From Escherichia coli (GTDB lineage Bacteria; Pseudomonadota; Gammaproteobacteria; Enterobacterales; Enterobacteriaceae): DNA of 64,000 nucleotides. The notes beneath the pieces are model-generated. The model was not told where the DNA came from and searched no databases. It saw nothing but the letters and a program-made list of their open reading frames with translations. Shown here in pieces: positions 18,578-56,887 of the stretch (position 1 is its first letter; each line of letters begins with the position of its first letter). Both the position numbers and the translations under genes were made by a program. The stretch lies in the NCBI RefSeq assembly GCF_041886205.1, contig NZ_CP169029.1; one strand, 5' to 3'.

Positions 18578-18622
18578 CACAACCAGGCACTTACTGGCCG
18601 GTTATCCATGTCTATATTATAT

Positions 18623-25493: not shown

Positions 25494-25837
25494 TCCCGTT
25501 ACCTTCCGGGACCAAAATTTGGCTGGTTGCCGGTATCACCGATATGAGAAATGGCTTCAACGGCCTGGCTGCGAAAGTACAGACGGAGCTGAAAGACGAT
25601 CCCATGTCCGGCCATGTTTTCATTTTCCGGGGCCGCAGCGGTAGTCAGGTTAAACTGCTGTGGTCCACCGGTGACGGACTGTGCCTCCTGACCAAACGGC
25701 TGGAGCGTGGGCGCTTCGCCTGGCCGTCAGCCCGTGATGGCAAAGTGTTCCTTACGCAGGCGCAACTGGCGATGCTGCTGGAGGGTATAGTCTGGATGCA
25801 ACCGGGAAGGTCGAAAAGTAATAGTCTGCGGATCTGA
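25490..25837 (+). CDS. tnpB: IS66-family TnpB
   Basis: 115 aa, nearly identical to 14208..14558 over most of its length. Confidence 0.85.
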   Translation: MIPLPSGTKIWLVAGITDMRNGFNGLAAKVQTELKDDPMSGHVFIFRGRSGSQVKLLWSTGDGLCLLTKRLERGRFAWPSARDGKVFLTQAQLAMLLEGIVWMQPGRSKSNSLRI

Positions 25838-25856
25838 ATCCCTTTACCTGGGCAGG

Positions 25857-26443
25857 ATGAAAAATATCCCGCTTCCTGATAATATCGACCAGCTGAAAGC
25901 CCTGTTGCGTCAGCAGCAGGTTGCTGTGGAACAGCTAAATGTTACCATGAAAAAGCAGCAGGCCCGGCTGCGCCAGTACGCCGGACAGGTTGCCGACTAC
26001 GAACAGGAAATCGAACGGCTGAAGGCACAGCTTGATAAGTTGATAAGCTGCGGCGGATGCTGTTCGGGCAGAGTTCAGAGAAAAGCCGCAATAAACTGGA
26101 AAATAAAATCCGCCAGGCAGAGAAGCGGCTGGCTGAGCTGGAAAACCGTCTTGCAGCGGCAAAACGCTGTCTGCAGGACGATGAGCCCACTGTCAGTACG
26201 GTTGAGCAGGCAGAGCCCCCGGTGGCGGTCGCCCCACAGGACCGGCCTGCACGCCGCTCCCGTCGTCAGAAACTGCCGGCAGACCTGCCACGTGAAACCC
26301 GGCGCATCACCCCGACAGTGACTGTCTGCCCGAAATGCGGCGGCGACCTGAAGGTGATGAGTGAAACCGTCTCAGAGCAACTGGAGATAATCCGCAGCGC
26401 CTTTAAGGTCATCGAAACGGTGCGCCCGAAGCTGGCCTGCAGC
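25857..26443 (+). pseudogene. tnpC: IS66-family TnpC, N-terminal part, frameshifted by an 8-bp duplication and truncated
   Basis: MKNIPLPDNIDQLKALL...QLDKL then frame shifts at the duplicated TTGATAAG (26033..26048); continues in the 26057 frame (MLFGQSSEKSRNKL...CPKCGGDL...) and ends at the junction with cdiA. Confidence 0.75.
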
Positions 26444-29400
26444 GGTGTGCTTGTTGGTTCCGCCCTGAATACACAGTCACAGACCCTGACCAACAGTGGT
26501 CTGTTGCAGGGGGAGGCCTCACTCACCGTTAACACACAGAGGCTTGATAATCAGCAGAACGGCACGCTGTACAGTGCTGCAGACCTGACGCTGGATATAC
26601 CGGACATCCGCAACAGCGGGCTTATCACCGGTGATAATGGTTTAACGTTAAACACTGCCTCCCTCAGCAATCCGGGAAAAATCATCGCTGACACGCTGAA
26701 CGTCAGGGCGACCACGCTGGATGGTGATGGTCTGTTGCAGGGCGCCGGTGCACTGGCGCTTGCAGGCGACACCCTCTCACAGGGCCGTAACGGACGCTGG
26801 CTGACGGCGGGCGACCTCTCCCTCCGGGGTAAAACACTGCATACCGCAGGGACCATGCAGGGACAGAATCTCACCGTGCAGGCGGACAACTGGGCGAACA
26901 GTGGCTCCGTGCTGGCAACCGGTAACCTTACTGCTTCGGCAACCGGTCAGTTGACCAGTACCGGCGATATCATGAGCCAGGGTGACACCACGCTGAACGC
27001 AGCCACCACGGACAACCGGGGCAGTCTGCTTTCGGCCGGCACGCTCTCTCTTGATGGAAATTCACTGGATAACAGCGGCACTGTCCAGGGTAACCATGTC
27101 ACGCTTCACCACAGAAGCACTGACAACAGCGGTACGGTCACGGGGCTGAGCGGTCTGACCCTGCACAGCGCGGACGGGCTTACCAACAGTGGCGCGCTGC
27201 TGAGCCAGAACTCGCTGGCGCTGAGCGCAGGAGATGTGACCAACAGCGGCCGGATTCAGGGGCAGAACATCACTCTGGATGCCAGCAGCCTGACCAGCAG
27301 CGGTGCTGTTCAGAGTGCGCTGGATTTGGCTCTGACCCTGAGTGGCGATGTTATTGCTGCCACCGGCAGCAAAATTACCGCCATGGGCGATGCCCGCCTG
27401 ACCGGGAAAGTGCTGGGTAACCAGGGATTAATCAGCGCGAAGACGCTGGAAGTGAATGGTGATTCGCTCAGCAACAGTGGCGAAATCAGTGGTGTTAACA
27501 GCCTGAACGTGACACTCAGTGGTAATCTGCAACAGCACGGTAAAATGCTGACAGGCGGTGCATTAAACGTCAACGCCAGAGACATCAGCAATAGTGGGCA
27601 GCTTCAGGGGGCGGATAACCGAATCACCGCCAGTTCGCTGACCAACTCAGGTCGTGTGCAGGGCGACAGCGGGCTGACTCTTACATTGCTGAATGCCCTG
27701 ACCAACCAGACCAGCGGTGTGCTTCTCAGCCAGAACGTATCAGCGCTTTCCGCACCCGTGCTGACCAATGACGGCACCATTCAGGGCAACGGTAAAACCA
27801 CGCTCAGCGCGGCAACGCAGGCCCACAACAGTGGCAAGATTCTTTCCGGCGGTGAGCTGACGTTCACCACGCCGGACTACAGTGGCAGTGGCTGGCTACA
27901 GGCCACTGACCTGCTGCTGAACGTGGCGAAGCTTGCCGGTAATGGCACTGTGATGGCGGCGAATCAGGCAACGCTCACAGGTAACAGTCTGACCAACCGT
28001 GGCCTGTTCCAGGCCGCACAACTGAACGTCAACACGCAGACCATCACCAACAGCGGCACGCTGCTGGGTAATCAGGGCCTGACAATAAAAGGGAACAGCC
28101 TGAACAACGCCGGCGGGAAGGTATTCAGCGGCGGTGATATGCTTGCTGATATGGTCTCGCTCAGCGGCGCGGGCCAGCTGGTTGCACTCGGTAACCTGAC
28201 GCTGAAGCTCACCCGTGGTTTGACAGCACAGGGCGTTATCGCCGCGAATAAACAACTCTCCGTCAGCAGCCAGGGTGATATTACCAATGGCGCCACATTG
28301 CAGGGCAACGGTATCACGCTGAATGCGGCGGGCAGGCTGACCAACAATGGCCAGTTGACCGCCGGCAACGGCACCACGGCACTGAGCGGCAGCGGGATTG
28401 CGATGAATGCCAGCGGCAGCCTGCAGGCAGGCGGGGACGTCAGTCTGACCAGCCGGGGGGATATCACTCTCGACGGTTTTACCGGCACGACGGGTAGTCT
28501 GATGTTAACGGCCGCCGGGTCAGTCATTAACGCCGCACTGTTGTATGCGGGCAATAACCTCTCGCTGTTTGCCAGCACCATCCGGAACCATCACGGCGAT
28601 ATGCTGGCGGGTGACAGCCTGGTGATGCAGAAAGATGTCAGTGGTGCCGCGAATGCTGAAGTGATTAATACCTCCGGGAATATCGAAACCACCCGCGGTG
28701 ATATCACCATCAGAACCGGACATTTACTGAATCAGCGGGAGGGTATAAATGAGACAAAATCATACATTCCGGTTGAGAATGTCGCAGTACCTGATGGTGC
28801 AAATTCTGTTTCAGTCAGAGTGGGCGATTTAGGTGAAGATGGATGGGGATATTATGTGAAGTCCTGGAGCGGTACTGCCGGTGGTGGTTTTGAGGCATGG
28901 GCCGTTCCGACTGAAAAGGGAGCCACCCGGAAATTTCTGACTGGCACAACACGCGTCGATGTTGGTGCAACAGGGGGGGATGCCAGAATTTCGGCCGGGA
29001 ATAATCTGCTGATTGACGCGGACAAACTGGATAATACGGGAAGTCATCTTCTTGCCAGCGAGTTTGTCAGCCTGTCGGGTTCACAACTGAATAATCAGTC
29101 CTTCTTTGGCTATACACAGGATGAATACAATGTGTATCGCTATTACGGCAAACTGGCCATGATCCCCAACGACGGGCATCTGCAGTATGGAGATGCTTCT
29201 GCCGATGATCGCGTTACCTTTACTCTCTCCGGAGCTCCGGAATATGTCACCAGAGACACCGGTCAGGCTCTGAGAGCCGTGATTCAGGCAGGCAAAAATG
29301 TCACTGCCGTTTTTTCCAGTGATATCAGTAATACATCCACAACCTCAAATGCAGGACGGATCACAAATACCCTTGCGGCACCTGAAATTAACACGCCGGC

Positions 29401-29553
29401 AGAGAAAAATATCAGCCCGGGAATGGCTCAACTGGCGCCGGATGGCACAGAGACGCTGACCGTCACGGCCCCGGACTGGACTGACACCATTACCCGTCTG
29501 ACGATCGGCAGTGGTACGGACCTGGCTTCCGGCATCGTGGTGGGGAACTATCC
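26444..29553 (+). pseudogene. cdiA: cdiA internal segment (filamentous haemagglutinin-type repeat region), 5'-truncated and fused in frame to the tnpC remnant
   Basis: Long Gly/Asn/Thr/Ser-rich repeat region (...LTNSGLLQGEASLTVNTQRLDNQ...); no cdiB or CdiA secretion domain upstream; interrupted at 29553 by IS186. Confidence 0.8.
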
Positions 29554-30892
29554 CATAAGCGCTAACTTAAGGGTTGTGGTATTACGCCTGATATGATTTA
29601 ACGTGCCGATGAATTACTCTCACGATAACTGGTCAGCAATTCTGGCCCATATTGGTAAGCCCGAAGAACTGGATACTTCGGCACGTAATGCCGGGGCTCT
29701 AACCCGCCGCCGCGAAATTCGTGATGCTGCAACTCTGCTACGTCTGGGGCTGGCTTACGGCCCCGGGGGGATGTCATTACGTGAAGTCACTGCATGGGCT
29801 CAGCTCCATGACGTTGCAACATTATCTGACGTGGCTCTCCTGAAGCGGCTGCGGAATGCCGCCGACTGGTTTGGCATACTTGCCGCACAAACACTTGCTG
29901 TACGCGCCGCAGTTACGGGTTGTACAAGCGGAAAGAGATTGCGTCTTGTCGATGGAACAGCAATCAGTGCGCCCGGGGGCGGCAGCGCTGAATGGCGACT
30001 ACATATGGGATATGATCCTCATACCTGTCAGTTCACTGATTTTGAGCTAACCGACAGCAGAGACGCTGAACGGCTGGACCGATTTGCGCAAACGGCAGAC
30101 GAGATACGCATTGCTGACCGGGGATTCGGTTCGCGTCCCGAATGTATCCGCTCACTTGCTTTTGGAGAAGCTGATTATATCGTCCGGGTTCACTGGCGAG
30201 GATTGCGCTGGTTAACTGCAGAAGGAATGCGCTTTGACATGATGGGTTTTCTGCGCGGGCTGGATTGCGGTAAGAACGGTGAAACCACTGTAATGATAGG
30301 CAATTCAGGTAATAAAAAAGCCGGAGCTCCCTTTCCGGCACGTCTCATTGCCGTATCACTTCCTCCCGAAAAAGCATTAATCAGTAAAACCCGACTGCTC
30401 AGCGAGAATCGTCGAAAAGGACGAGTAGTTCAGGCGGAAACGCTGGAAGCAGCGGGCCATGTGCTATTGCTAACATCATTACCGGAAGATGAATATTCAG
30501 CAGAGCAAGTGGCTGATTGTTACCGTCTGCGATGGCAAATTGAACTGGCTTTTAAGCGGCTCAAAAGTTTGCTGCACCTGGATGCTTTGCGTGCAAAGGA
30601 ACCTGAACTCGCGAAAGCGTGGATATTTGCTAATCTACTCGCCGCATTTTTAATTGACGACATAATCCAGCCATCGCTGGATTTCCCCCCCAGAAGTGCC
30701 GGATCCGAAAAGAAGAACTAACTCGTTGTGGAGAATAACAAAAATGGTCATCTGGAGCTTACAGGTGGCCATTCGTGGGACAGTATCCCTGACAGCCTAC
30801 AAAACGCAATTGAAGAACGCGAGGCATCGTCTTAACGAGGCACCGAGGCGTCGCATTCTTCAGATGGTTCAACCCTTAAGTTAGCGCTTATG
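29554..30892 (+). mobile_element. IS186 (IS4 family), 1339 bp, with a 10-bp target-site duplication GGAACTATCC
   Basis: Terminal inverted repeats CATAAGCGCTAACTTAAGGGTTG (29554) and CAACCCTTAAGTTAGCGCTTATG (ending 30892); GGAACTATCC at 29544-29553 and 30893-30902; the cdiA frame is restored across the insertion. Confidence 0.9.
29609..30721 (+). CDS. insL: IS186 transposase
   Basis: 370-aa product MNYSHDNWSAILAHIGKPEELDTSARNAG... from the ATG at 29609. Confidence 0.9.
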   Translation: MNYSHDNWSAILAHIGKPEELDTSARNAGALTRRREIRDAATLLRLGLAYGPGGMSLREVTAWAQLHDVATLSDVALLKRLRNAADWFGILAAQTLAVRAAVTGCTSGKRLRLVDGTAISAPGGGSAEWRLHMGYDPHTCQFTDFELTDSRDAERLDRFAQTADEIRIADRGFGSRPECIRSLAFGEADYIVRVHWRGLRWLTAEGMRFDMMGFLRGLDCGKNGETTVMIGNSGNKKAGAPFPARLIAVSLPPEKALISKTRLLSENRRKGRVVQAETLEAAGHVLLLTSLPEDEYSAEQVADCYRLRWQIELAFKRLKSLLHLDALRAKEPELAKAWIFANLLAAFLIDDIIQPSLDFPPRSAGSEKKN

Positions 30893-30902
30893 GGAACTAT
30901 CC

Positions 30903-33900
30903 CCTGCCTTCCGGTAACAATGGTTATTTTGTCCCGTCCACGGACCCGGACAGTCCGTATCTGATTACGGTGAATCCGAAACTGGATGGTCTCGGAAAGG
31001 TGGACAGCAGTCTGTTTGCCGGACTGTATGACCTGCTCAGGATGCACCCCGGGCAGGCACCACGTGAAACAGACCCGGCGTATACTGATGATAAACAATT
31101 CCCGGGCTCATCGTATTTTCTTGACCGGCTCGGGCTGAAACCGGAAAAAGATTATCGCTTCCTGGGGGATGCCGCTTTTGATACCCGCTATGTATCGAAC
31201 TATATGCTGAACCAGATCGGGGGGCGCTATATCAACGGGGTTGGTTCAGACACCGACCAGATGCGCTACCTGATGGATAACGCTGCCCGTGCACAGAAGG
31301 CGCTCGGTCTGAAGTTTGGTGTGGCACTGACAGCAGACCAGGTGGCGGCTCTCGACCAAAGTATTCTGTGGTATAAAGCCGTCACGATAAAGGGTCAGAC
31401 GGTGATGGTGCCGGAAGTGTATCTGTCACCGAAAGATGTGACGCTGCAGAACGGCAGTATTATCAGCGGTCAGAATGTGCACCTGGCAGGAGGGAATGTC
31501 ACTAACAGTGGCAGTACCCTGATGGCGCAGAATGATCTCACCATCGACAGCGCTGACAGTCTGGGTAACCTTGAGTCCGGGCTTATAAATGCCGGTGGCG
31601 CTCTCGGACTGAAAGCGATGGGCGATATCAACAATATCAGTGCCACGATTACCGGTAAGACTGTCCGGCTGGAGAGTCTCGCCGGCAATGTCAATAATCT
31701 CACCCGGTACTCACACTGGCAGCTTGATGCACCGGAAGACAGCCTCGCCCTGAAACACACTTATACGGGAAGCATTGCCTCTGTCAGTGCCATGGATAGT
31801 CTGGACATCCGGGCAGATAAAAACATTTCGGTCACAGGGGCAGAAATCAGCGCCGGAGGTCGCGCAGCACTTATTGCCGGCAATGATCTCAGTCTGAATG
31901 CCATTGACAGGGTAAGCAGCAGTCGCCATGCAAACAGTGAATCTCACCAGCGCAGTGCAGAACTTACGACCATTACTGCCGGCGACAGTGTGATGCTGAG
32001 TGCAGGCCGGGATGTGAGCAGTCAGGGTGCAGGTATCGCAGCGGAAGACAACATCACTGTCCGGGCCGGGCGCGACGTTAATCTGCTGGCGGAAGAGTCC
32101 GTGACCGGCAGCAGTTCATACTCGAAAAAGAAAACGGTCATTGATGAAACCGTTCGCCAGCAGGGAACGGAAATCGCCAGCGGTGGTGACACCACCATTA
32201 CTGCAGGACGGGATATCACCGCTGTTGCGTCATCCGTTACCGCAACCGGCAATATCAGTGTGAATGCCGGTCGTGATGTCGCCCTGACCACGGCGACAGA
32301 AAGTGACTATCACTATCTGGAAACGAAGAAAAAAAGCGGAGGTTTTCTCAGTAAGAAAACCACCCACACCATCAGTGAGAACAGTGCCACCCGTGAAGCA
32401 GGCGCCCTGCTGTCGGGGAACCGCGTGACCGTTAACGCCGGTGATAACCTGACAGTACAGGGTTCGGATGTGGTGGCTGACCGGGATGTGTCACTGGCGG
32501 CGGGTAACCATGTTGATGTTCTTGCTGCCACCAATACAGATACGTCCTGGCGCTTTAAGGAAACGAAGAAATCCGGTCTGATGGGTACCGGCGGTATTGG
32601 TTTCACCATTGGCAGCAGTAAGACAACGCACGACCGCCGCGAGGCCGGGACAACGCAGAGTCAGAGTGCCAGCACCATCGGCTCCACTGCCGGTAATGTC
32701 AGTATTACCGCGGGCAAACAGGCTCATATCAGCGGTTCGGATGTGATTGCGAACCGGGATATCCGCATTACCGGTGACAGTGTGGTGGTTGACCCGGGGC
32801 ATGACCGTCGTACTGTGGACGAAAAATTTGAGCAGAAGAAAAGCGGGCTGACGGTTGCCCTTTCCGGCACAGTGGGCAGTGCCATCAATAATGCGGTTAC
32901 CAGTGCACAGGAGACGAAGGAGAGCAGTGACAGCCGTCTGAAAGCCCTGCAGACCACAAAGACAGCGCTGTCTGGTGTGCAGGCCGGACAGGCTGCGGCA
33001 ATGGCCACCGCAACCGGTGACCCGAATGCGACGGGAGTCAGCCTGTCGCTCACCACCCAGAAATCGAAATCACAACAACATTCTGAAAGTGACACAGTAT
33101 CCGGCAGTACGCTGAATGCCGGGAATAATCTGTCTGTTGTCGCAACCGGCAAAAACAGGGGCGATAACCGCGGAGATATTGTGATTGCAGGAAGCCAGCT
33201 TAAGGCCGGTGGTAACACAAGCCTGGATGCCGCGAATGATATTCTGTTGAGTGGCGCTGCAAATACACAAAAAACAACGGGCAGGAACAGCAGCAGTGGC
33301 GGTGGCGTGGGTGTCAGTATCGGTGCCGGTGGTAACGGTGCCGGTATCAGTGTCTTTGCCAGCGTTAATGCGGCAAAAGGCAGCGAGAAAGGTAACGGTA
33401 CTGAGTGGACTGAAACCACAACAGACAGCGGTAAAACCGTCACCATCAACAGTGGTCGGGATACGGTACTGAACGGTGCTCAGGTCAACGGCAACAGGAT
33501 TATCGCCGATGTGGGCCACGACCTGCTGATAAGCAGCCAGCAGGACACCAGTAAGTACGACAGTAAACAGACCAGCGTGGCTGCCGGCGGCAGTTTTACC
33601 TTTGGCTCCATGACCGGCTCAGGTTACATCGCTGCCTCCCGGGATAAGATGAAGAGCCGCTTTGATTCCGTTGCTGAACAAACCGGAATGTTTGCCGGTG
33701 ACGGCGGCTTCGACATTACAGTGGGCAGACATACCCAACTGGATGGTGCGGTGATTGCCTCCACTGCCACACCGGATAAAAACCACCTGGATACCGGAAC
33801 GCTGGGGTTCAGTGACCTTCACAACGAAGCGGATTATAAAGTCAGTCACAGTGGAATCAGTCTGAGCGGTGGTGGCAGCTTCGGGGATAAATTTCAGGGT

Positions 33901-35406
33901 AACATGCCGGGTGGCATGATATCCGCCGGAGGTCACAGCGGACATGCGGAAGGAACGACTCAGGCCGCAGTGGCAGAAGGCACTATCACCATCCGGGACA
34001 GGGACAATCAGAAGCAGAATCTGGCGAACCTGAGCCGTGACCCTGCGCACGCTAATGACAGTATCAGCCCGATATTTGACAAGGAGAAAGAGCAGAGGCG
34101 TCTGCAGACAGTGGGGCTTATCAGTGACATAGGCAGTCAGGTGGCGGATATTGCGCGTACACAGGGAGAACTGAATGCGTTGAAGGCCGCGAAGGAAGCA
34201 ACCGGCGAAACACTTCCTGCTAATGCAACAGAGAAACAACGTCAGGAATATCTTGCGAAACTGCGTGACACGCAGGCTTACAGGAATGAAATGGCGAAGT
34301 ATGGCACTGGTAGTGAAATTCAGCGGGGTATCCAGGTCGCGATGGCAGCGCTTCAGGGCCTGGCGGGCGGCAATATGGCAGGCGCGCTGGCAGGTGCTTC
34401 AGCGCCGGAGCTGGCGAACATCATCGGTCATCACGCGGGTATTGATGACAATACAGCTGCAAAAGCCATTGCCCATGCCATTCTCGGTGGTGTGACAGCA
34501 GCCCTTCAGGGCAACAGTGCGGCAGCAGGCGCAATTGGCGCGGGTACTGGCGAAGTGATCGCGTCAGCCATTGCGAAAAGCCTCTACCCGGACGTAGATC
34601 CGTCGAAACTGACAGAAGAGCAGAAGCAAACTGTAAGCACGCTGGCAACGCTGTCAGCGGGTATGGCCGGCGGTATTGCCAGTGGCGATGTGGCTGGCGC
34701 GGCTGCTGGGGCTGGTGCCGGGAAGAACGTTGTTGAGAATAATTTACTTGGCGGTAGTGAAGATGCTCAGGCTGCGTGGATACGCCAGCATGGTATCGAC
34801 ATGGCGACATGTGCAGAAAACCCTTCCGGTGCCGCCTGCCAGAAAGCAATGAATGAGAGGGATGCTGTAGGGCTGGCTCTGGCAACAGGTACAGTGGCAC
34901 TACTCCCCGGTAGTGCTCAGGCTATGTGGGGACTGGGAGCAAGTGCGAATGCTGGTATCAGTTATCTGGCTGATGGTACTGTAGATCCGGCAAACGCAGC
35001 CATTGCAGGCTGGGTGAATGTGTTCAGCATGGGTAATGGCCTGGCGGGGACTGTGGGCTGGAATGCGGCAGGTGGTGCGCTGGGTAACTGGATCGACAAC
35101 AAAGATCCTCTGTCTGGTGCAATTTCAAATGGTATCGGTTCTGCTGCCGGGTATGGTATCGGTAAAGGTGTTACTTGGGGGACAGATAAGATTACGAATG
35201 CTGTAGGAAAATGGGTGACAAATGGCTGGGATCCTAAGTACGATCCAACATGGATAAAATATGCTGAAGTAAATCGTAACGATATCATTCGAGAAGGCAT
35301 GAAACCGAGCAATGTTCCTGGAACTGCTGGAGATATTGGCGGTTCTATAGGATCTGAGCTAGGTGGAAAAGTAACAGATAAAGTATCTGAGGAACTCAAG
35401 AAATGA
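30903..35406 (+). pseudogene. cdiA: cdiA 3' portion: repeat region, pretoxin region, VENN motif (34732..34743) and a Gly-rich C-terminal toxin domain (CdiA-CT)
   Basis: In-frame continuation of 26444..29553 once IS186 and one duplicate are removed; ...[15 protein letters not shown]... precedes a Gly/Ala-rich CT resembling membrane-acting CdiA-CTs. Confidence 0.8.
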
Positions 35407-35660
35407 AATATTCTTCTCGAGTGGTAATAGGTAAGTTTATTATATGCAGTTCAATTCTCTTATTGTGTTTTATTGGCATGATCTTAGCGGCCATAATAAC
35501 TAAACTAACGTTTGTAGCGTTAGCATGGTTTCAAAGCGGGATTTTTGAAGTTTTGTGGAGCGATATTGTTTATGCTGCTCAGTTGGGTGGTCTGGGGGGG
35601 GGCATATTAGGTTTTTGTTGGGTTTTGTTATATCTTTTTAGGGCAAAGGGCTTTAGTTGA
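35403..35660 (+). CDS. cdiI: CdiI immunity protein (85 aa, integral membrane)
   Basis: Overlaps the cdiA stop (ATGA); hydrophobic small protein [35 protein letters not shown]... Confidence 0.75.
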
Positions 35661-36564
35661 GAATAACTACCTCAGCTACGACGAGGCGCATGCTTTTGAC
35701 AGAGAAATGACGGCCTGTCGTAAAGCGGGTGGAGACTGTGGCGATATTCAGAATAAATATGCTGTATTAAGCGCAGAGAACCGACAGAAATTACACATTG
35801 ATGTGGCTGCAGATCCTCTTACGGCTCTGTCCGGGGAAGATAAATGGAATATTGAGGGCGGACTCAGCGCGGCGGGCCGACCTGGCTGGCTGTATGGTTC
35901 ACTGACTAATCAGGAGGTGAAGGATTACGTGACTGAAGGCAACAGCTACGACCTGAACTATCTGAACAGTAATACGTCGAAGGGTGACAGGGCTCTGGCT
36001 TTCTTCGGGGAACCGGAAAATTACTGGGGTACGGTTGCCGGAGCGGGTTCGTTGTTAACGTCATCAGCCACGCTGACTGAAAAATTTGTCAGTGCCGGGC
36101 TGAGCTATGGGGCTAATGGTGCGGTACAAATTGGTACGGGAAATATCGGTGATAAGTTCGATTATCTCAGTTTCATGATGTCAGGCTTGACTGGTGTAGG
36201 TACAGCCGGGAAAGGATATTACGCTAACCAGTTGTTGGGTGCTGGTAGTGCTTACATGAGCAGCCAGATTGAAGGCCAGGACAGTACCGCATCAGTAGTG
36301 GGTAGCATGGCTGGTACAGGCCTAGGATATAACGTTGGTGCTTCAATTACTAATAAGTTAGAAGCTCAATACATCAAAAATCAACTGGGAATGGACGCCA
36401 GTAAATATTCACTGCAATATTCGGAAAAGTCTATCGGATACGGTATGTATCAAGGCGGACAAATGAGTTCTATACCAGGAACATTTGGTGGATTTGTTGG
36501 TTCATTCGTATCAGAAGGTGCAAGCAGCGCAACGCAAAAAGAAGTTGATGGAGACAAAAAATGA
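35656..36564 (+). CDS. orphan cdiA-CT module 1 (VENN onward; no start codon of its own)
   Basis: Begins [55 protein letters not shown]...; ORF track 35707..36564. Confidence 0.7.
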   Translation, partial: VENNYLSYDEAHAFDREMTACRKAGGDCGDIQNKYAVLSAENRQKLHIDVAADPLTALSGEDKWNIEGGLSAAGRPGWLYGSLTNQEVKDYVTEGNSYDLNYLNSNTSKGDRALAFFGEPENYWGTVAGAGSLLTSSATLTEKFVSAGLSYGANGAVQIGTGNIGDKFDYLSFMMSGLTGVGTAGKGYYANQLLGAGSAYMSSQIEGQDSTASVVGSMAGTGLGYNVGASITNKLEAQYIKNQLGMDASKYSLQYSEKSIGYGMYQGGQMSSIPGTFGGFVGSFVSEGASSATQKEVDGDKK

Positions 36565-37680: not shown

Positions 37681-37683
37681 TAG

Positions 37684-37809
37684 TTGAGAATAACTACCTC
37701 AGCTACGACGAGGCGCATGCTTTTGACAGAGAAATGACGGCCTGTCGTAAAGCGGGTGGAGACTGTGGCGATATTCAGAATAAATATGCTGTATTAAGCG
37801 CAGAGAACC
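37684..37809 (+). pseudogene. remnant duplicate of the 5' end of orphan cdiA-CT 1, closed by a TAG
   Basis: 37684-37806 matches 35656-35778 ([45 protein letters not shown]) then TAG. Confidence 0.7.
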
Positions 37810-39173
37810 GACAGAAATAGGATATTGCCGGGCTCAGCCGGGACCCGGAAAACGCCAACGGCAGCATTGCACCGATATTTGACAGGGAGAAAGAGCAGAA
37901 GCGTCTTCAGGAAGCGCAGGTTATCAGCCAGATTAGCGGTCAGATGAGTAACATCGTCATGACGTATGGCGAAACTGAAGCGATGAAAGCAGCCAGGAAA
38001 GAGCATCCTGGCATGAGCGATGCACAGTTGCGGGAGACTCCGGAATACAGAGAGGTCATGAAAGGCTACGGTACGGGCAGTACGCCGCAGATGGTGGTAC
38101 AGGCCATCACAGGCGTGCTGGGCGGACTGAATGCAGGGAATCCGGGGCAGGTACTGGCTGGCGGTCTGAATCCGGCAGTGGCACAGCTTATAAAACAGGC
38201 CACCGGCGATAACCGGGAAGCAAACCTGATGGCTCACGCAGTCTGGGGAGCGCTTGCCGCACAACTGGGCGGAAACAATGCGGCTTCCGGTGCTGCAGGG
38301 GCATTCAGCGGTGAACTTGCAGCCCGGTATATCATTGATAACTACTACGGTGGTCGTACCGATAACCTGAGTGAACAGGAACGTCAGCAAATCAGCATGC
38401 TGGCCACCATTGCCTCAGGTATTGCGGGCGGGCTTGTCGGCAACAGTACAAGTGCTGCCGGTACGGGGGCACAGGCAGGCAGGAACTCGGTTGAGAATAA
38501 TGCGCTGAGTCTGGTTGCCAGAGGCTGTGCGGTCGCAGCACCTTGCAGGACTAAAGTTGCAGAGCAGTTGCTGGAAATCGGGGCGAAAGCGGGCATGGCC
38601 GGGCTTGCCGGGGCGGCAGTCAAGGATATGGCCGACAGGATGACCTCCGATGAACTGGAGCATCTGATTACCCTGCAAATGATGGGTAATGATGAGATCA
38701 CTACTAAGTATCTCAGTTCGTTGCATGATAAGTACGGTTCCGGGGCTGCCTCGAATCCGAATATCGGTAAAGATCTGACCGATGCGGAAAAAGTAGAACT
38801 GGGCGGTTCCGGCTCAGGAACCGGTACACCACCACCATCGGAAAATGATCCTAAGCAGCAAAATGAAAAACCTGTAGATAAGCTTAATCAGAAGCAAGAA
38901 AGTGCGATTAAGAAGATCGATAACACTATAAAAAATGCTCTGAAAGATCATGATATTATTGGAACTCTCAAGGATATGGATGGTAAGCCAGTTCCTAAAG
39001 AGAATGGAGGATATTGGGATCATATGCAGGAAATGCAAAATACGCTCAGAGGATTAAGAAATCATGCGGATACGTTGAAAAACGTCAACAATCCTGAAGC
39101 TCAGGCTGCGTATGGCAGAGCAACAGATGCTATTAATAAAATAGAATCAGCCTTGAAAGGATATGGAATATGA
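37810..39173 (+). CDS. orphan module 3: pretoxin region, VENN and a distinct C-terminal toxin domain, derived from a different cdiA allele
   Basis: ...[26 protein letters not shown]... parallels the main cdiA pretoxin region (34010-34740); VENN within [14 protein letters not shown] track 37944..39173. Confidence 0.7.
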
Positions 39174-39556: not shown

Positions 39557-39588
39557 CTAATCCCGGTCACTGAGCCGAGATCTTCTTT

Positions 39589-41380
39589 GTGTGCCGGGCA
39601 TGTTCAGCAGCTCGGGGGTGAAAGTCCCCTGTCCAGCCTGATGGTGGCGAAGGACTAGCGAAGCGCAAGGGCGTCGTCGTAAGGCGGGGTCTGAAGGAAG
39701 CGTGAAGCAAATCCATGACCTGACGAACAGAAATCCGATACGAGGCCTACCCGGTTGGCGGAGCAAGCAAAGAATTGCGAAGGCCATAACCATCAAGAAC
39801 CGGGGGGTAAATCGGACAGGTGTGTGGTGAAGGCGTCTGAACTTACCCCGGGAGGCCTGTCCGTCGTTCTGTATCTAGAACTTAGCGTACCGTAAGGGGC
39901 GCTGACCGGCGGACAGGAGTCAGCAGAGGGCATAGTAGGGCATGACACCCGAAGGCCCGAACGGTAATGAGTGACGAGTATCAACGGAGGTTCTGAACGG
40001 TCATGCAGCAGAAAACGCATCGCGCCCCTGAGGCCGGAGAACGGGGTGAAGCCCCGAACGCCGCCCTTCCGGGGGCTGAAACCGTGCAGGCACCGACGAA
40101 CAGAGAAAGTCCGTCGTCAACAGTGTGGCTGATGGAAGCCATTTGTGAACCAGTCAATCTCAGGCAAGCCCTGAAAAGAGTTAAAGCCAACAAAGGTGCA
40201 GCGGGAGTCGATGGTATGCGCGTAAGCGAACTGCCGGACTACCTGAGGCACCACTGGCCAGAGCTGAAAGCGCAACTACTGTCTGGCAGATACCGCCCAT
40301 CTCCTGTGAGAAGAGTGTCCATACCGAAGCCCGGCGGCGGCGAACGTCTGCTGGACATCCCGACGGTGGTGGATCGCTTCATCCAGCAGGCGATGATGCA
40401 GGTATTGCAGGGGCACTGTGGGATAGCTCGTTCAGCGATAACAGCTACGGGTTCCGTCCCGGTCGTTCGGCCCACCAGGCAGTGATACAGGCCCGGGAAC
40501 ATATCGGGGCCGGGTATCACTGGGTGGTCGACCTCGATCTGGAGAAGTTCTTCGACCGGGTAAATCACGATGTGCTGATGAGCCGGATAGAGAAACGAGT
40601 ATCGGATAAACGGGTGTTGTCACTTATCCGCAGGTTCATGAATGCAGGGGTGATGGACGCAGGTCTGGTAAGGCCGGTGACAGAAGGAACGCCGCAGGGC
40701 GGCCCACTGTCGCCGCTGCTATCGAACCTGCTGCTTGACGACCTCGACAAGGAACTGGAGAAACGTGGTCTGAAGTTCGTGCGGTACGCAGACGACTGTA
40801 ATGTCTACGTGAAAAGCGAACGGGCAGACAACCGGATCATGGCGGGGTTGACGCACTGGCTGAGCCATAAACTGAAGCTGAAGGTCAACGCGAAGAAGAG
40901 TGCTGTAGCACGCCCTGAAACGCGCAAGTTCCCTGGATACAGCTTCATAAGGGGGCGGAAGGTATGGTGCGTGGTATCGCCGGAGTCGATAAAACGGTTC
41001 AAAATGCGGATAAGAGCACTGACCGGACGCAACACAGGGAGAAGCCTTGAACAGCTAACCCGGTTGCTAAAACGATATCTGACGGGCTGGAAAAGTTACT
41101 ACGGGCTGAACCAGAGGCCATCGCTGATGCGAGAGCTGAACGGATGGATAAGGCGCAGTCGAGGCGTAAGCAAGGACCTTGCGGCGCAAACAGCAGGAAG
41201 CTGCCATAAAGAGTGGCGGATAAGCTGTAGTCCGGCACTGAATATAGCACTCCCCAATAATCTGTTCTCCAGACTGGGCCTGCCAGAAGTATAGGCAGGC
41301 GACGATCAACATAACCGAACCGCCGTATACGGCCCCATACGTACGGTGGTGTGGGAGGAAGCTGATCGTGAGATCAGCTC
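39589..41380 (+). mobile_element. bacterial group II intron (about 1.8 kb) with a frameshifted intron-encoded protein
   Basis: 5' GTGTG at 39589; internal ORFs encode reverse-transcriptase motifs including the YADD box; a domain V-like hairpin (ACCGCCGTATACGG...ACGTACGGTGGT) lies near 41318-41350; the 3' boundary is approximate (about 20 bp either way). Confidence 0.7.
40003..41294 (+). pseudogene. group II intron reverse transcriptase/maturase split into two ORFs by a frameshift
   Basis: ORF 40003..40485 ends ...QGHCGIARSAITATGSVPVVRPTRQ while the next frame reads SSFSDNSYGFRPGRSAHQAVIQAREHIG... and continues into ORF 40482..41294, which carries ...FVRYADDCNVYV... Confidence 0.75.
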
Positions 41381-41446
41381 CTATCCCGATTTAACCGTCA
41401 GTCTCCCCCAAAATGCCCGTCCTGGCGCTTGTACACTGGCATATTG

Positions 41447-41535
41447 GCATGATCTTAGCGGCCATCATAGCTAAACTAACGTTTGTAGCGTTAACATGGT
41501 TTCAAAGCGGGATTTTTTAAGTTTTGTGGAATGAT
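41447..41535 (+). pseudogene. partial duplicate of cdiI (matches 35473-35561)
   Basis: GGCATGATCTTAGCGGCCAT[CA]ATA[GA]CTAAACTAACGTTTGTAGCGTTA[AG]CATGGTTTCAAAGCGGGATTTTT shared with the cdiI gene. Confidence 0.6.
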
Positions 41536-41591
41536 GCGTATTTTCATGAAAGGAGATCACTCAATAACTTCCATCGAGATCGGGTAATAAC
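41536..41591. repeat. copy 3 of the unclassified palindromic repeat (left half only), truncated by an IS66-family end
   Basis: GCGTATTTTCATGAAAGGAGATCACTCAATAACTTCCATCGAGATCGGGTAATAAC then GTAAGC of the IS begins at 41595. Confidence 0.6.
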
Positions 41592-41956
41592 ATTGTAAGC
41601 TTCCGGGGAACTCATATTGACGCGTTTTTCAGGCGCGCGTCATCGGCGGCGCATACGAACGATCGTGGTCTGATAACGGTTGATTTATTTTGTTGCACAG
41701 GGGCGATCGCCAGGCAGGTACCGGAGGCGGGCTCTGAAGTACTGAGTAGGGTGATCGCGTCAGGCCGCGAAGTACTGACTCGGGGATTAATGGCAGGTGA
41801 TGATGTACTGACCCGGGAATGACTCCGGGCTGATTCAGGTTCTTATTCGCTGTCAGCCCGTGTGGTTGCTGGTCTGGCTCATTTCCTGTCGTCAGGAGTT
41901 CAACTCCCGACTGCAGGTTATGGCCCGGTGCACGAACACCTGACGGCAGGTATCAC

Positions 41957-43444
41957 TCACCCGGAGAAGGTAAATCCCTCAAGAGGCAGCAACTCTGCCA
42001 GTCGCTCCTCCGGCCACTCCGGCAGACGCATCAGGACGTCTGTCAGCCAGGCATGCGGCTCCAGACCGTTGCGTTTCGCGGTTTCCAGCAAGCTCATTAT
42101 TTGCGCGGCGCGTTCTCCTGCCATCTGCGAACCGGCGAACAGCCACGATTTTCTGCCCAGGACCACGTTTTTGATGGCCCGTTCACACACATTATTATCC
42201 AGCGGCACCGCACCATCTTCCAGGAAGCGGCTTAGTTCCACGCGATGAGACAGCGCATAGACAATGGCTTTGTGTAATGCCCTTCCCGGAGAACATTGCG
42301 GTTCCTGCTCTTCAAGCCATGACCACAGATCTTCCAGTATCGGACGGGCATAACGCTGTCGCCACTGGCGGATTTTTTCCACGGGGCGGCTACTGATCTT
42401 CTTCTCAAGACGGTACAACCCCGCGATTTTCTTCACGGCGATGGCAGCCCGTGGATCTTTACTGATTTTATACAGGTCGGCGAAGCCCCTGCGGGCATGG
42501 GACCAGCATCCGGCCAGCGTGATCTCCGGCACTTTGTTTGCCAGAGTCCGGTAAGCTTTATGTCCGTCGACAACCAGCGTCCCGCCCCAGCCCTGAAGCC
42601 AGTTTTCAGGATACTCATGGCTACGTCCGGTCCGGCAGTTGAAGCACACAACTGACGGTCCCGTCCTTTCTCCACTGACGTATGCCCACAGATAACCGGA
42701 GCAGGATTTACCGCCTTTCTTCGTGTTCAGGAGCTTCAGGGTAGTCTCATCTGCATGCACCACCGGACGGTTTATCAACTCGCGATGGAGTAACGCCGCC
42801 AGGGGAGATAATGCGGCACCCGCCGCGCCAACCATGTCAGCCATCGAACTGACGGGAAGCCCGACATCTGAACGGGCAAAGACCTGTTGCTGGCGATACA
42901 GAGGCAGGTGGTCACCGTATTTATTGATGATCACCTGTGCGATGACTGATGGCTCAACGGCACTTTTCGGGAGGATATGTGCCGGCATTTCACCGCTGAA
43001 CACCTTCTGGCAACAGGGACAACTGTATTGCGGACGGACATAACAGTTCACCACGAAGTGAGCGGGAATATACTCCAGCTTTTCACTCACCGCATCACGG
43101 ATATAGTGCAGCGGCTCGTCACATTCAGGGCAATGGTCAGTGTCCGGCTGGATAATTTTTTCCACCCGTGGAAGATGAGCCGGTAAGGATTTGCGTATCG
43201 GGCGTGAACGGGACGCTTTTTCGTCTTCTTCAGGGGATTGCGGGAGCAGTTTATCCAGATGTGCGGTAAGCGCGGCGATATCGACATCAACATCCTCTTC
43301 GAACAGGGAGCGTTGCATACCAGCCAGCGTTTCACATTTTTTACCGAAGCGCTGTTGACGAACCAGTTTCAGCATTTCTTCCAGAAGCTGGATGCGCCGG
43401 CTTTTCTCCAGTAATTCCCGCTCTTTTTCGGCATTCTCCGACAT
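41957..43444 (-). CDS. tnpC: IS66-family TnpC transposase (495 aa)
   Basis: MSENAEKERELLEKSRRIQLLEE...CPECDEPL...DGAVPLDNNVCERAIKNVVLGRKSWLFAGS... Confidence 0.85.
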   Translation of the reverse strand: MSENAEKERELLEKSRRIQLLEEMLKLVRQQRFGKKCETLAGMQRSLFEEDVDVDIAALTAHLDKLLPQSPEEDEKASRSRPIRKSLPAHLPRVEKIIQPDTDHCPECDEPLHYIRDAVSEKLEYIPAHFVVNCYVRPQYSCPCCQKVFSGEMPAHILPKSAVEPSVIAQVIINKYGDHLPLYRQQQVFARSDVGLPVSSMADMVGAAGAALSPLAALLHRELINRPVVHADETTLKLLNTKKGGKSCSGYLWAYVSGERTGPSVVCFNCRTGRSHEYPENWLQGWGGTLVVDGHKAYRTLANKVPEITLAGCWSHARRGFADLYKISKDPRAAIAVKKIAGLYRLEKKISSRPVEKIRQWRQRYARPILEDLWSWLEEQEPQCSPGRALHKAIVYALSHRVELSRFLEDGAVPLDNNVCERAIKNVVLGRKSWLFAGSQMAGERAAQIMSLLETAKRNGLEPHAWLTDVLMRLPEWPEERLAELLPLEGFTFSG

Positions 43445-51906: not shown

Positions 51907-53367
51907 TCAATACGGTTCTGACGAGTCGCTTACTTTTGTGCTGTCGCCAAAATCACTAATCCCTCTCACAATAAGCGCTGGAACTCCCTGCTTTTCGCAG
52001 GCATCAAATACCCCATAGGCTTCCATTTCGGCAACACAGGCTTTGTCATGAAGCGACCTGAAACGTTCTAGTAAAGCAGGATCGCGGATAAGAAGCTCTC
52101 CTGATGCGATAGTGGCTGAAGAAACAATTATCCCAGCAGCTACGTCTCCAGCCTGCGAATTTTCAGGCATTTCGAGTCCTATAGCCTGTGCCCGTTCGCC
52201 AAGACGTGCGGATAGTGACGTTGTTGCAAGGTAAGTATTGAGGTTTTGTTTAGTTGGCATATGGAGACATAATATTTCAGGTCGAGGAGCAAACTTCCCA
52301 CCTTCTAATGCGGCTGCACTTTCATAATAAATGACACGCTCAGAAATAATGACTTCACCTAGCACCATTTTTTCTCTCAACCCCGCCGCAATCCCCATCA
52401 TCAAGACTTTTTGGGGTTTGAATTCCGACAACAACATGGTAGTAATAGCTGAAGCATTCACATTTCCAGCACTAGCGAAAGACGCCACTATGCCAGTTAC
52501 TGGGCCATCTGAGCGTTGTATGGATGTGGACCAGAAATGTATTCCATTTGATGTGAGCCGCGGAGATTCATCATCAGCTATGCCAAATACTTTCTTGGCT
52601 GCAGCAAGTTCAACTGGTAGAGCTGTCAAAATCAACACATTTGGAGTATGCAGCAACTGTTGTGCAGCCCATTCAGCTTTAAGCAATTCAACTGCGATTT
52701 CTGAAAGTCGTTCCAGTCCATAGTAAGGTTCCTGTAACGATAAAGTGTCGAGCTGATTTTTTACGGCTTCACCGGTGCAAGGGAACATAGACAGCGGCTC
52801 TGCATAAAAACGTGCATGTAGGCCTAAAGCACCTTTTCCGTCATCGCAAATTCCCCCAAGCTCCAAGTCAAACGGTAATATGGGGTGGTTGGCTTTACGC
52901 ATTTTACTCGCACGATCGGAAACGCCTTTTCCTCCACCTAATGCAATCATGGCTGTGGCAGCATCAACCTGCTCGCTTCCAATATTTCCTCCAGTAATGA
53001 GATCATCATCTAGATAGCTGACATCAGCAAATCTAGCTGCCTGAAGTTTACGAATAAGCATCCGATTCTCTTCAGACATTTTCTCCCGCATTGCAGAACG
53101 CGACGTGACGATCTTGAGTTGGTGGGCTGGCGTATAATTCTCCATTAAATCTACAGCTTCTTTTACTATCGTCCAGTCGAAGGTCAGGAGATCCCCATTT
53201 TCATTAACAGGTTCTCCTGCCAAATAGACAACTAGTCCCACATTTGCATCAAGGATGCTCTTCGTCAATGCTCGAACGAAACTATGTGCTCGATCAATAT
53301 AAAGTTTTTCTGTATTTTTGGATATACTTCCAGCGATCAGAACATACTCATTATTAGTATTTGTCAT
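51907..53367 (-). CDS. two-domain defence-effector candidate: N-terminal Rossmann-like putative ligand-sensing domain (SLOG-like?) fused to a C-terminal nucleoside-phosphorylase (PNP/MTA-nucleosidase) domain; the 3' end is replaced by IS66 terminal sequence
   Basis: ORF 51907..53382, ATG at 53367. C-terminal half ...KVLMMGIAAGL...GEVIISERVIYYES...CVAEMEAYGVFDACEKQGVPALIVRGISDFGDSTK is phosphorylase-like; N-terminal half has ...YVLIAGSIS...VGLVVYLAG...IALGGGKGV... The last 8 codons (VSDSSEPY) are read from the reverse complement of the IS66-5 terminal repeat. Confidence 0.6.
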   Translation of the reverse strand: MTNTNNEYVLIAGSISKNTEKLYIDRAHSFVRALTKSILDANVGLVVYLAGEPVNENGDLLTFDWTIVKEAVDLMENYTPAHQLKIVTSRSAMREKMSEENRMLIRKLQAARFADVSYLDDDLITGGNIGSEQVDAATAMIALGGGKGVSDRASKMRKANHPILPFDLELGGICDDGKGALGLHARFYAEPLSMFPCTGEAVKNQLDTLSLQEPYYGLERLSEIAVELLKAEWAAQQLLHTPNVLILTALPVELAAAKKVFGIADDESPRLTSNGIHFWSTSIQRSDGPVTGIVASFASAGNVNASAITTMLLSEFKPQKVLMMGIAAGLREKMVLGEVIISERVIYYESAAALEGGKFAPRPEILCLHMPTKQNLNTYLATTSLSARLGERAQAIGLEMPENSQAGDVAAGIIVSSATIASGELLIRDPALLERFRSLHDKACVAEMEAYGVFDACEKQGVPALIVRGISDFGDSTKVSDSSEPY

Positions 53368-53396
53368 CACAATTCTTCCCAAAGGAGTATTACTTG

Positions 53397-54296
53397 TTAC
53401 TGTTTAAGTAAGGCATAGATTTCATCCTTGTTTTTTAATGCTAACTGTAATGCTTCCGGCGCCTGATGTGACTGAGTCTCTGTAAGATTTAACTGGAAAA
53501 GAAGGTAGTGCAGCAAAGCTTGTCGGCATTCCAGATGGATTTCTCCGTCGATCATTGCATAATCTCTCTCAATAAGGTTTCGTTGAGCAAGGCATAGTCC
53601 AGGATGCGCTATAAGAATAATTTTGATGAATGTATTCCACGCTAAATCACCATTAGCCCTCTCTTCATCGGGTCCGGCGTTTTGTGCCTGCACTATTCGC
53701 GACAATAAAAAGTCCCTATATTCACCACGTTTATGACACCATGCTCTTGTGTGCCAGCGATAACCATCATGGACTAATGAATGAGGAGTCAAGGTTCGTT
53801 TACTGCCTTGAGGGTCACTCATGGATTGATAAATAACATGAACAGCCTCATTTTCACGTATAGCTCGTAATATTTGACTTACGACATCAGTGTCCAGTCT
53901 ACGTAACAGTCGTGGAACCGCTGCAACGGGTGAGCGCCAGCCCAGAAAGCTTCCAAAATGAATTTCAGGTTGTATTGCCACTCGCAGCAAATCATTCAGA
54001 TAACATTCCAGAGAGCTGGTCATATAAACTGGCTGAAACAATTTCGTTGAACGGTAAACTCGGGAACTCATATCGTACTCAAGATTATCGGGGGCTAACT
54101 TAGTATATTCACTAAGATCCAGCGAAGCTTGAGGTACTGATATGCCGAAAAAATCAGTGAGGCTGCTACGATTGATTTGCCCATCCCATCGAAGTCGATA
54201 ATCAATAAATTCAAGCCGACGCTCTTGGCCCCATCTCGCACCTTGCCGTCCTTTTTGGCTGTCTTGCTTATCCCCTTCTCTAAAGTTATCTGGCAT
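53397..54296 (-). CDS. WYL-domain transcriptional regulator (CapW/BrxR-like)
   Basis: 299 aa; WYL-type core ...DGYRWHTRAWCHKRGEYRDFLLSRIV...; stop is 29 nt upstream of the phosphorylase-gene start; divergent from the CBASS operon. Confidence 0.65.
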   Translation of the reverse strand: MPDNFREGDKQDSQKGRQGARWGQERRLEFIDYRLRWDGQINRSSLTDFFGISVPQASLDLSEYTKLAPDNLEYDMSSRVYRSTKLFQPVYMTSSLECYLNDLLRVAIQPEIHFGSFLGWRSPVAAVPRLLRRLDTDVVSQILRAIRENEAVHVIYQSMSDPQGSKRTLTPHSLVHDGYRWHTRAWCHKRGEYRDFLLSRIVQAQNAGPDEERANGDLAWNTFIKIILIAHPGLCLAQRNLIERDYAMIDGEIHLECRQALLHYLLFQLNLTETQSHQAPEALQLALKNKDEIYALLKQ

Positions 54297-54395
54297 CTTA
54301 GTTCCCGGTAGCGTATAAAAAATATCTCAATATAAAAAGTAGACGCAGAATAAAAACTGAACGTATAATAATGCTACGCTATAGGGCGGTAAGGT

Positions 54396-54433
54396 GCAAC
54401 CATCACCTCAGTCACTTCTGAGGTGATGGTTGC
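54396..54433. promoter_or_regulatory. perfect 16-bp inverted repeat with 6-bp spacer (GCAACCATCACCTCAG-TCACTT-CTGAGGTGATGGTTGC); candidate operator in the divergent promoter region
   Basis: Lies between the WYL gene start (54296) and the nucleotidyltransferase start (54466), 32 bp upstream of the latter. Confidence 0.5.
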
Positions 54434-54465
54434 AGTTTTCATGAATGATCTTCGGAAGGATGTGA

Positions 54466-55410
54466 ATGCCACTCACTAATACTCAGATCCGATACTACGA
54501 CAGCAATGTACTGCGTTTGCCTAAGGATAAGCGTGAAACCTACAATGCCCAAGTAGATCGGCTTATTACAGCGTTACGTAAAAAACTGAAAGATCAGGAT
54601 AAAATAACAATAAAACGTGTCGTTAAAGCTGGTTCGTTTGCTAAACACACTATTCTACGCAAAACCTCAGACAGTCAGGTCGATGTGGATGTTGTGTTTT
54701 ACGTTAGTGGAGAGAAAGTTGCTGAGGAAACCTTCGCAAGCCTGAGCGAAAAAATTTACGAAGCCTTACTTAAAATGTATCCCAACAAAGCTGTAGAAGA
54801 TTTCGAGATTCAACGTAAGGCTGCTACTGTTTCTTTTGTCGGGACTGGATTAGATGTTGATATTGTTCCCGTCATCGAAAATCCGGACAAAGAAGGCTAT
54901 GGATGGCAGTTTGACCGTATCGATGGTTCGAAGACAGAGACTTGTGCTCCTTGCCAGATCAAATTTGTGAAAGATCGCAAAGACCAAGACCCGGACTTTC
55001 GTACTTTAGTACGCTTAGCTAAACGTTGGCGTACCAACATGGAATGCCCACTTAAGTCATTTCATATAGAACTAATCATGGCTCATGTACTAGAAGTCAA
55101 TGGAAAAGATGGTTCGTTGGAGAAGCGATTTCGGGATTTTCTACTGTACATTGCTGAATCAGGATTAAAAGAAGTTATCACCTTCCCTGAAAATAGCACT
55201 ATACCAGCATTTTCCCATCCAGTTGTCATACTGGATCCTGTTTGCGATACGAACAACGTTACCAGCCGTATTACCGAGGATGAGCGAAAAGAGATCGTCC
55301 GGATTGCTGAGGAAAGTTGGGCGACGGCAAATTTTGCGTCGGTAGAAGGAGACTATGATATCTGGAAGGAGCTGTTTGGTCGTTCATTTAAAGTGGAGGA
55401 TACAGCATGA
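54466..55410 (+). CDS. cGAS/DncV-like nucleotidyltransferase (CBASS CD-NTase), 314 aa
   Basis: GGAAGGA RBS; nucleotidyltransferase signature ...VKAGSFAKHTILRKTSDSQVDVDVVFYV... (GS motif and acidic DVD); first gene of a four-to-five-gene operon. Confidence 0.7.
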   Translation: MPLTNTQIRYYDSNVLRLPKDKRETYNAQVDRLITALRKKLKDQDKITIKRVVKAGSFAKHTILRKTSDSQVDVDVVFYVSGEKVAEETFASLSEKIYEALLKMYPNKAVEDFEIQRKAATVSFVGTGLDVDIVPVIENPDKEGYGWQFDRIDGSKTETCAPCQIKFVKDRKDQDPDFRTLVRLAKRWRTNMECPLKSFHIELIMAHVLEVNGKDGSLEKRFRDFLLYIAESGLKEVITFPENSTIPAFSHPVVILDPVCDTNNVTSRITEDERKEIVRIAEESWATANFASVEGDYDIWKELFGRSFKVEDTA

Positions 55411-56791: not shown

Positions 56792-56887
56792 GGCCCCATT
56801 TCTTAATCAACTGATATACTATAAAAATCAACTCCAATTCCGGTACATTTGTTGATTTACGGTGCACTTCTTGCAAGCAGGAACTAT

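Follow-up and report, generated by a model that had tools for sequence, protein, structure and literature searches.

A group II intron lies directly behind the last orphan immunity gene, cdiI-o3, of a contact-dependent growth inhibition (CDI) locus in a 64,000-nucleotide stretch of an Escherichia coli genome (contig NZ_CP169029.1 of RefSeq assembly GCF_041886205.1; this whole stretch is hereafter termed the window). The intron is complete, covers 1802 nt on the plus strand from 39589 to 41390, starts with GUGUG and ends with CCCGAU. Comparison with its relatives indicates that the element is very probably a structurally intact but immobile bacterial class C (group IIC) intron, whose open reading frame (ORF) for a reverse transcriptase (RT)/maturase in domain 4 is broken. 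RefSeq describes it merely by the labels 'hypothetical protein' and 'reverse transcriptase domain-containing protein'; both can be replaced by a single entry, a pseudogenised IIC intron at 39589-41390.

The identity of the element rests on its ribozyme domains. A Rfam scan of the whole window returned two matches above the gathering threshold, RF02001 (group-II-D1D4-3; E 1.6e-26) and RF01998 (group-II-D1D4-1), and a permissive scan placed the domain 5/domain 6 model RF00029 at 41318-41390 with 33.6 bits (E 2.8e-4). The segment comprising domains 5 and 6 folds at -37.3 kcal/mol (z -5.0). Within domains 1 to 3, the 5' ribozyme, 104 of the 105 consensus pairs are kept and no damage is visible, and 37 pairs of this region occur with more than one type of standard pair across seven homologues. 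The termini conform to the GUGYG and AY ends of group II introns, and domain 6 carries a bulged branch-point A. The group II intron proposed in an initial annotation of this DNA is thus confirmed by the covariance models. Both ends, 39589 and 41390, are the points at which homology to independent copies elsewhere stops in a megablast search of 5,426 complete E. coli genomes, and they coincide with the homology limits at four unrelated sites. The start agrees with the earlier placement right behind the last orphan immunity gene, 32 nt separating it from the cdiI-o3 stop at 39556. The proposed range had extended to 41591; its last 201 nt, beyond 41390, are flanking sequence.

To place the intron within the known classes, we rebuilt the encoded protein by deleting two G and searched it against PDB structures and Pfam. 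The best structural matches were the RTs of IIC introns, namely GsI-IIC (6ar1, 3.6e-127) and Eubacterium rectale (7uim, 3.7e-93; also 5hhj/5hhl). Non-IIC proteins matched more weakly, with values of 9e-38 for LtrA (IIA) and 2e-31 for 6me0 (IIB). Pfam recognised RVT_1 (E 8e-41) and GIIM (E 7e-12) in the repaired ORF and nothing else; in particular, it found no endonuclease domain, and the protein of an intact relative ends about 30 amino acids beyond GIIM. By its best structure matches and its domain content, the intron is assigned to class C.

The ORF of the window copy carries two lesions. As previously described for this stretch, the protein is split into two frames just before the FSDNSYGFRPGRS motif, and the YADD box is present; both ORFs were found. 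The cause of the break is a +2 insertion, since the run GGGG stands where the 98% identical copy in a prophage of E. coli 2012C-4221 (L002) has GG, and two 87% identical copies (L004 and L005) also align two bases shorter at this point. The second lesion, which the initial annotation had not noticed, is an in-frame deletion of 63 nt at 41152/41153, between two GCGCAG direct repeats. According to the alignment with L002 and L004 it takes out 21 amino acids (RRLRS.LWKQWK...) of the maturase domain, and in the window copy Pfam GIIM is matched at model positions 1-57 of 80 only.

A change in homopolymer length such as GGGG versus GG is a typical site of sequencing or assembly error, and such an error would leave the RT intact and mobile. 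However, the same GGGG occurs in 9/9 other full-length copies checked (L001, L007-L010, L017, L018, L022 and L026), five of them in independent complete genomes from different laboratories (ZYB39, 1303, Z142-6, EC11 and JNU) and four in short-read metagenome contigs. The products of the split frame are shared RefSeq proteins (WP_001491540.1 and WP_001564266.1), and the deletion in the maturase domain would persist even after repair of the frame. Because the lesion is common to other genomes and metagenome contigs, we rejected a sequencing error, which is extremely unlikely, and regard the frameshift as inherited. The protein is therefore defective in the manner first suggested, and such a protein would be expected to limit mobility. 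The element can probably no longer mobilise itself, and splicing in vivo is probably inefficient when its own maturase is missing.

Class C introns use EBS1 and EBS3 (exon-binding sites) only and insert after Rho-independent terminators (PMC3522654, PMC1702495). To examine whether the position behind cdiI-o3 follows this rule, seven independent insertion sites of the intron family were compared: the site in the window, the site of the prophage copy, those on a pAA-type plasmid and in the chromosome of E. coli 06-00048 (both 87% identical to the window intron), and one each from a Klebsiella, a Providencia and an Aeromonas plasmid. At 7/7 sites the intron directly follows a GC-rich hairpin and a T-run. 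The first three positions of EBS1 covary perfectly with exon positions -1 to -3 across these sites in five combinations, with AAA/TTT and CAT/ATG seen twice each next to AAG/CTT, ATG/CAT and ATA/TAT. For the window copy, 5 bp pair between EBS1 (AAAGA) and the intron-binding site IBS1 (TCTTT). At 39705, the candidate EBS3, the base is A in two copies with T as the first base of the 3' exon and G in two copies with C at that place. The recurrent hairpin and T-run, together with the covariation of EBS1, indicate that the position of the intron reflects class C homing, here to a terminator-like hairpin behind cdiI-o3. It is also this covariation that defines a target rule for the E. coli/Klebsiella IIC family. 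An alternative hairpin between an exon arm and the 5' end of the intron (-14.3 kcal/mol, z -1.7) was not significant and was dropped.

The same junction was then followed through the CDI loci of other genomes. The module upstream of the intron consists of a VENN-delimited cdiA-CT (the C-terminal toxin region) and its cognate cdiI downstream of the main cdiA, as expected of an orphan module, and RefSeq annotates it as VENN pre-toxin and cdiI. Strain 536 is 99.6% identical to the window exactly from VENN (38490) to intron nt 65 (39653); it carries intron nt 1-65 at the identical site, followed by an internal fragment of an IS66 transposase (IS, insertion sequence). The occupied junction of cdiI and intron was found in 209 of the 5,426 complete E. 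coli genomes. Of these 209, about 200 show the arrangement of strain 536 with its 65-nt stub and nine have the full-length intron. It was also present in 16 metagenome contigs (full-length in 4, as the stub in 11 and broken off where the sequence ends in one). The 3' junction of the intron occurs in 12 complete E. coli genomes. Three of these are of the APEC E956 type, in which a cdiB lacking its C-terminal part has been joined directly to intron position 40949 by a deletion. This fusion lies at 7930-8040 of the APEC E956 locus (L003) and is also seen in 10035210-2 and GmF052; the deletion has taken away cdiA, every cassette and 1360 nt from the 5' side of the intron. A composite exon-exon query gave 0 spanning matches in the 5,426 complete E. 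coli genomes, and hairpin plus TCTTT followed by a base other than G gave 0 matches in species-representative genomes and in metagenome contigs. The positive control, hairpin plus TCTTT followed by G, matched 16 metagenome contigs and 0 species-representative genomes, so the collection with one genome per species simply does not contain the cassette.

This distribution is most simply read as one retrohoming event behind cdiI that preceded the spread of the cassette, with the window keeping the older, full-length state. An active ancestor would have reverse-spliced once into single-stranded DNA just past the hairpin and T-run after cdiI, guided by the 5-bp EBS1-IBS1 pairing and probably also by EBS3-IBS3 (A/T). 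The insertion would then have become fixed together with the CdiA-CT/CdiI-UPEC536 cassette, the 3' ends of which carry either the whole intron or its first 65 nt. Loss of the RT/maturase would have followed later, through +2 slippage in the G run and the 63-nt deletion between the 6-nt direct repeats; this order of events is the one we infer.

Several points weigh against an immobile class C intron that homed to a terminator. The RF00029 match to domains 5 and 6 remains under its gathering score of 40 bits. The EBS3 candidate is based on four sites only. The hairpin in the 5' exon is weak, with -6.4 kcal/mol in the window and -8.1 in the variant of strain 536; at a z of about -2.2, 8/200 shuffled sequences fold equally well. 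It is the weakest of the seven and far below the other six, and the label terminator is not demonstrated for it. As no empty site was found, the pre-insertion sequence is deduced and not observed. Finally, some residual splicing may take place through self-catalysis or with the help of a trans-acting maturase.

The sequence downstream of the intron bears on another possible origin, in which illegitimate or homologous recombination during cassette shuffling, and not homing, carried the intron next to cdiI-o3. The 3' flank is indeed a patchwork, in which 51 unique nt are followed by an 89-nt fragment of cdiI, half a palindrome and the end of an IS66-type element. The duplicate of cdiI and the truncated repeat copy reported before are both real; the duplicate had been described as lying immediately 3' of the intron, from which it is in fact separated by the 51 unique nt (41391-41441). 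In other genomes, moreover, the intron itself has served as a later breakpoint, with IS66 at +65 in strain 536, cdiB at 40949 in APEC E956 and IS100 in the prophage copy. Against this origin, the junction has the hairpin, the T-rich tail, a perfect 5-bp IBS1 matching the intron's own EBS1 and a T opposite the A of the candidate EBS3. The prophage copy with the same EBS1 follows a different hairpin and the same TCTTT, and the patchwork begins 51 nt past the splice site and not at it. We consider transport by recombination very unlikely and favor homing. The proposal of a recombination hot spot in the CDI array holds insofar as the flank is a patchwork and breakpoints arose later; as the cause of the intron position it is not needed, since homing suffices.

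Further features were seen in this flank. An ORF of 36 codons (41413-41523) begins in the 51-nt spacer and runs into the cdiI-like fragment; instead of being a plain duplicate, it may derive from a variant small membrane immunity gene of which this remnant is left. Scattered through the window are imperfect palindromes some 70-90 nt in length (GCGTATTTTCATGRAAGGAGATCAC ... GATCTCCTTCAYG..AATACGC), located at 955-1028, 11854-11925 and 18490-18580, with a half copy at 41536-41591, and by sequence the family resembles a small MITE- or REP-like element (miniature inverted-repeat transposable element or repetitive extragenic palindrome). A repeat search detected no inverted repeats around 41380-41900, and the palindromic repeat surfaced only by small-word BLAST within the window. 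The IS66-type end is followed by an IS66 tnpC ORF on the minus strand (41957-43444).

The different fates of protein and ribozyme raise the question of whether the intron is kept for a role of its RNA, be it splicing from read-through transcripts by a trans-acting maturase, a portable 3' homology arm or an RNA-stabilising 3' end. Nearly all ribozyme pairs are intact as opposed to two lesions in the ORF, the 65-nt stub is 98.8-99.6% conserved in about 200 genomes, and the intron has the same orientation as the cdi genes. Yet the copies differ by only about 2% from the prophage copy, so that an intact structure may just mean youth. The stub is devoid of any catalytic domain, and its conservation equals that of the neighbouring cassette and hence gives no sign of extra constraint. 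The Rfam scan revealed no second group II intron in the window, which thus offers no local source of maturase. Retention for such a role appears very unlikely, and a decayed, passively carried intron is the reading we prefer.

A related idea concerns the cassette rather than the ribozyme. The 5' end of the intron marks the 3' boundary of the widely studied CdiA-CT/CdiI-UPEC536 cassette and is a sharp marker for tracing how it changed places between main and orphan positions. As a sequence derived from a retroelement, the intron or the 65-nt stub might act as a fixed 3' end of the UPEC536-type cassette, providing downstream homology or an RNA 3' end for exchange between CDI loci, or subjecting downstream expression to read-through or splicing. 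Such a function would explain why no cassette lacking the intron was encountered among 209 genomes and 16 metagenome contigs, but we judge it quite unlikely. The boundary is not mentioned in the literature searched, where we also found nothing linking group II introns with CDI loci, save one unrelated paper containing both terms.

The coordinates of all features of the locus are listed in Table 1.

Table 1 Features of the intron, its target site and the flanking CDI sequences in the window.
Feature	Start	End	Strand	Basis
Orphan cdiA-CT-o3, UPEC536 tRNase type; VENN from 38490, protein ends GYGI	37944	39173	+	ORF list; strain 536; RefSeq annotation of near-identical loci
Orphan cdiI-o3, CdiI-UPEC536-type immunity gene, 128 aa	39170	39556	+	ORF list; cdiI WP_000631803.1 / WP_000631802.1 in related loci
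Terminator-like hairpin in the 5' exon, arms ATCCCGGT / GCCGAGAT, one internal mismatch	39561	39581	+	Folds; inferred class C target
IBS1 TCTTT, last 5 nt of the 5' exon	39584	39588	+	EBS1 complementarity; seven-site covariation
Group IIC (class C) intron	39589	41390	+	Rfam; comparison of copies
Domain 1 core, Rfam group-II-D1D4-3	39673	39841	+	130.2 bits
Candidate EBS3 (A)	39705	39705	+	Four-site comparison
EBS1 AAAGA, in the 8-nt loop (39768-39775) of hairpin 39763-39778	39769	39773	+	Rfam structure line; fold; covariation
Domain 2/domain 3 region, Rfam group-II-D1D4-1 segment	39881	39957	+	50.5 bits
Intron-encoded protein, N-terminal piece (RT-0 to RT-2), ends out of frame	40003	40485	+	ORF list
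GGGG run, 2 extra G relative to L002, L004 and L005	40410	40413	+	Alignment
Intron-encoded protein, C-terminal piece, from just after FSDNSYGFRPGRS via YADD to the truncated maturase domain	40482	41294	+	ORF list; alignment; Pfam
GCGCAG, junction of the 63-nt deletion	41153	41158	+	Alignment with L002 and L004; Pfam GIIM
Domain 5, CGC triad where the Rfam consensus has AGC	41319	41350	+	RF00029 alignment; fold
Domain 6, bulged A at 41383 as branch point, 7 nt upstream of the 3' splice site	41352	41388	+	Fold
3' exon, first base T (candidate IBS3); no other copy in the window	41391	41441	+	BLAST within the window
Pseudogene fragment of main-type cdiI (about residues 24-49), GAA to TAA stop	41442	41530	+	95.5% over 89 nt to 35471-35559; translation taken from the sequence
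Left half of the imperfect-palindrome repeat, truncated	41530	41591	+	95% to 18484-18546
IS66-type terminal sequence (..TGTAAGCTTCCGGGG..), cuts the repeat	41592	41660		Common to related strains up to ~41660

Additional observations concern the CDI locus upstream of the intron. The main cdiA (26057-35406) is interrupted at 29542-30904 by an element of about 1.36 kb with 35-nt inverted repeats that are 89% complementary. Upstream of this gene there is no cdiB ORF, and IS66 tnpA/tnpB-like ORFs are located at 25092-26321; from its sequence, the main CDI system of the window looks non-functional. A direct repeat of 147 nt (97%) is present at 35654-35800 and 37681-37827. It carries the VENN-proximal start of the orphan CT-o1, its second copy follows cdiI-o2 just upstream of the o3 module, and it looks like a duplication of a cassette junction.

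Elsewhere in the window, the Hfq-binding small RNA STnc490 is matched over its full length at 8159-8282 (RF01405, 141.7 bits). By near-identity to strain ZYB39, the region of about 51907-57451 is annotated as a CBASS (cyclic oligonucleotide-based antiphage signaling system) cyclase operon accompanied by a WYL-domain protein and a large protein of the nucleosidase family, a defence island adjoining the IS cluster.

Class C introns that sit behind terminators and decay into dead copies borne on islands are well-known phenomena. A close relative of the window intron is the prophage copy of E. coli 2012C-4221 (L002 6007-9800), whose EBS1 is likewise AAAGA and whose 5' exon also ends in TCTTT, behind a strong terminator hairpin. 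It shows neither ORF lesion but is split by IS100, and its genomic site is a different one that lies downstream of phage tRNA genes. Relatives carried by E. coli pAA-type plasmids, by a Klebsiella pneumoniae plasmid and by the chromosome of E. coli 06-00048 are 86-88% identical over the full length and share the architecture and the type of target. Their EBS1 is CAT or AAG, and hence their exon ends differ from the one in the window. Unlike the window copy, pNORD58_1 (pAA-type) has an uninterrupted ltrA ORF of 450 amino acids (WP_021562748.1), and the copy in 06-00048 has a C-terminal deletion of its own. A phage collection yielded no match to the intron.

Remnants of this lineage were also met. 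A stretch of 45 nt at L015 2501-2545 (E. coli 2016C-3878), present in about 60 other genomes as well, is identical to window positions 41348-41392, which comprise the last 43 nt of the intron and the 2 nt that open the 3' exon; it adjoins an acyltransferase gene in an island. Judged by this identity, it is a third insertion of the same intron lineage, nearly wholly deleted. A fragment on Shigella/E. coli virulence plasmids, catalogued as S.d.F1 with a reported similarity of 82% to Di.ze.I1, a class C intron (PMC3522654 supplement), is 94% identical to nt 605-1142 of the window intron. Its copies are 0.5-kb plasmid fragments, in contrast to the full-length intron described here.

A known E. coli intron in comparable circumstances is E.c.I6, described from the selC island of CFT073, ED1a, S88 and APEC O1 (Leclercq & Cordaux 2012, PMC3522654). 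Like the window intron, which it nearly equals in length (1807 nt), E.c.I6 is an E. coli class C intron behind a terminator, has a disrupted ORF and is passively borne on an island. It belongs to a different lineage, however, and starts with GUGCG. Identity of the two was considered and rejected, as only patches align at ~69-86%.

Compared with the IIC introns B.h.I1 of Bacillus halodurans and GsI-IIC of Geobacillus stearothermophilus, and with those of Eubacterium rectale and Roseburia intestinalis, the window intron likewise lacks an endonuclease domain and has the CGC triad in domain 5. It also shares with bacterial IIC introns the insertion right after a hairpin and T-run and a short EBS1/IBS1 (PMC1702495, PMC3522654), although its pairing is 5 bp long versus 3 bp at most related sites. 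It differs from them by the +2 frameshift, the loss of 21 amino acids from the maturase and the weak target hairpin. The case fits the extinction pattern described for introns of Enterobacterales (PMC3522654). Set against these systems, the element is an ordinary decayed class C intron. It is mildly notable only in that the UPEC536-type CDI cassette has its fixed 3' boundary at the 5' end of this intron.

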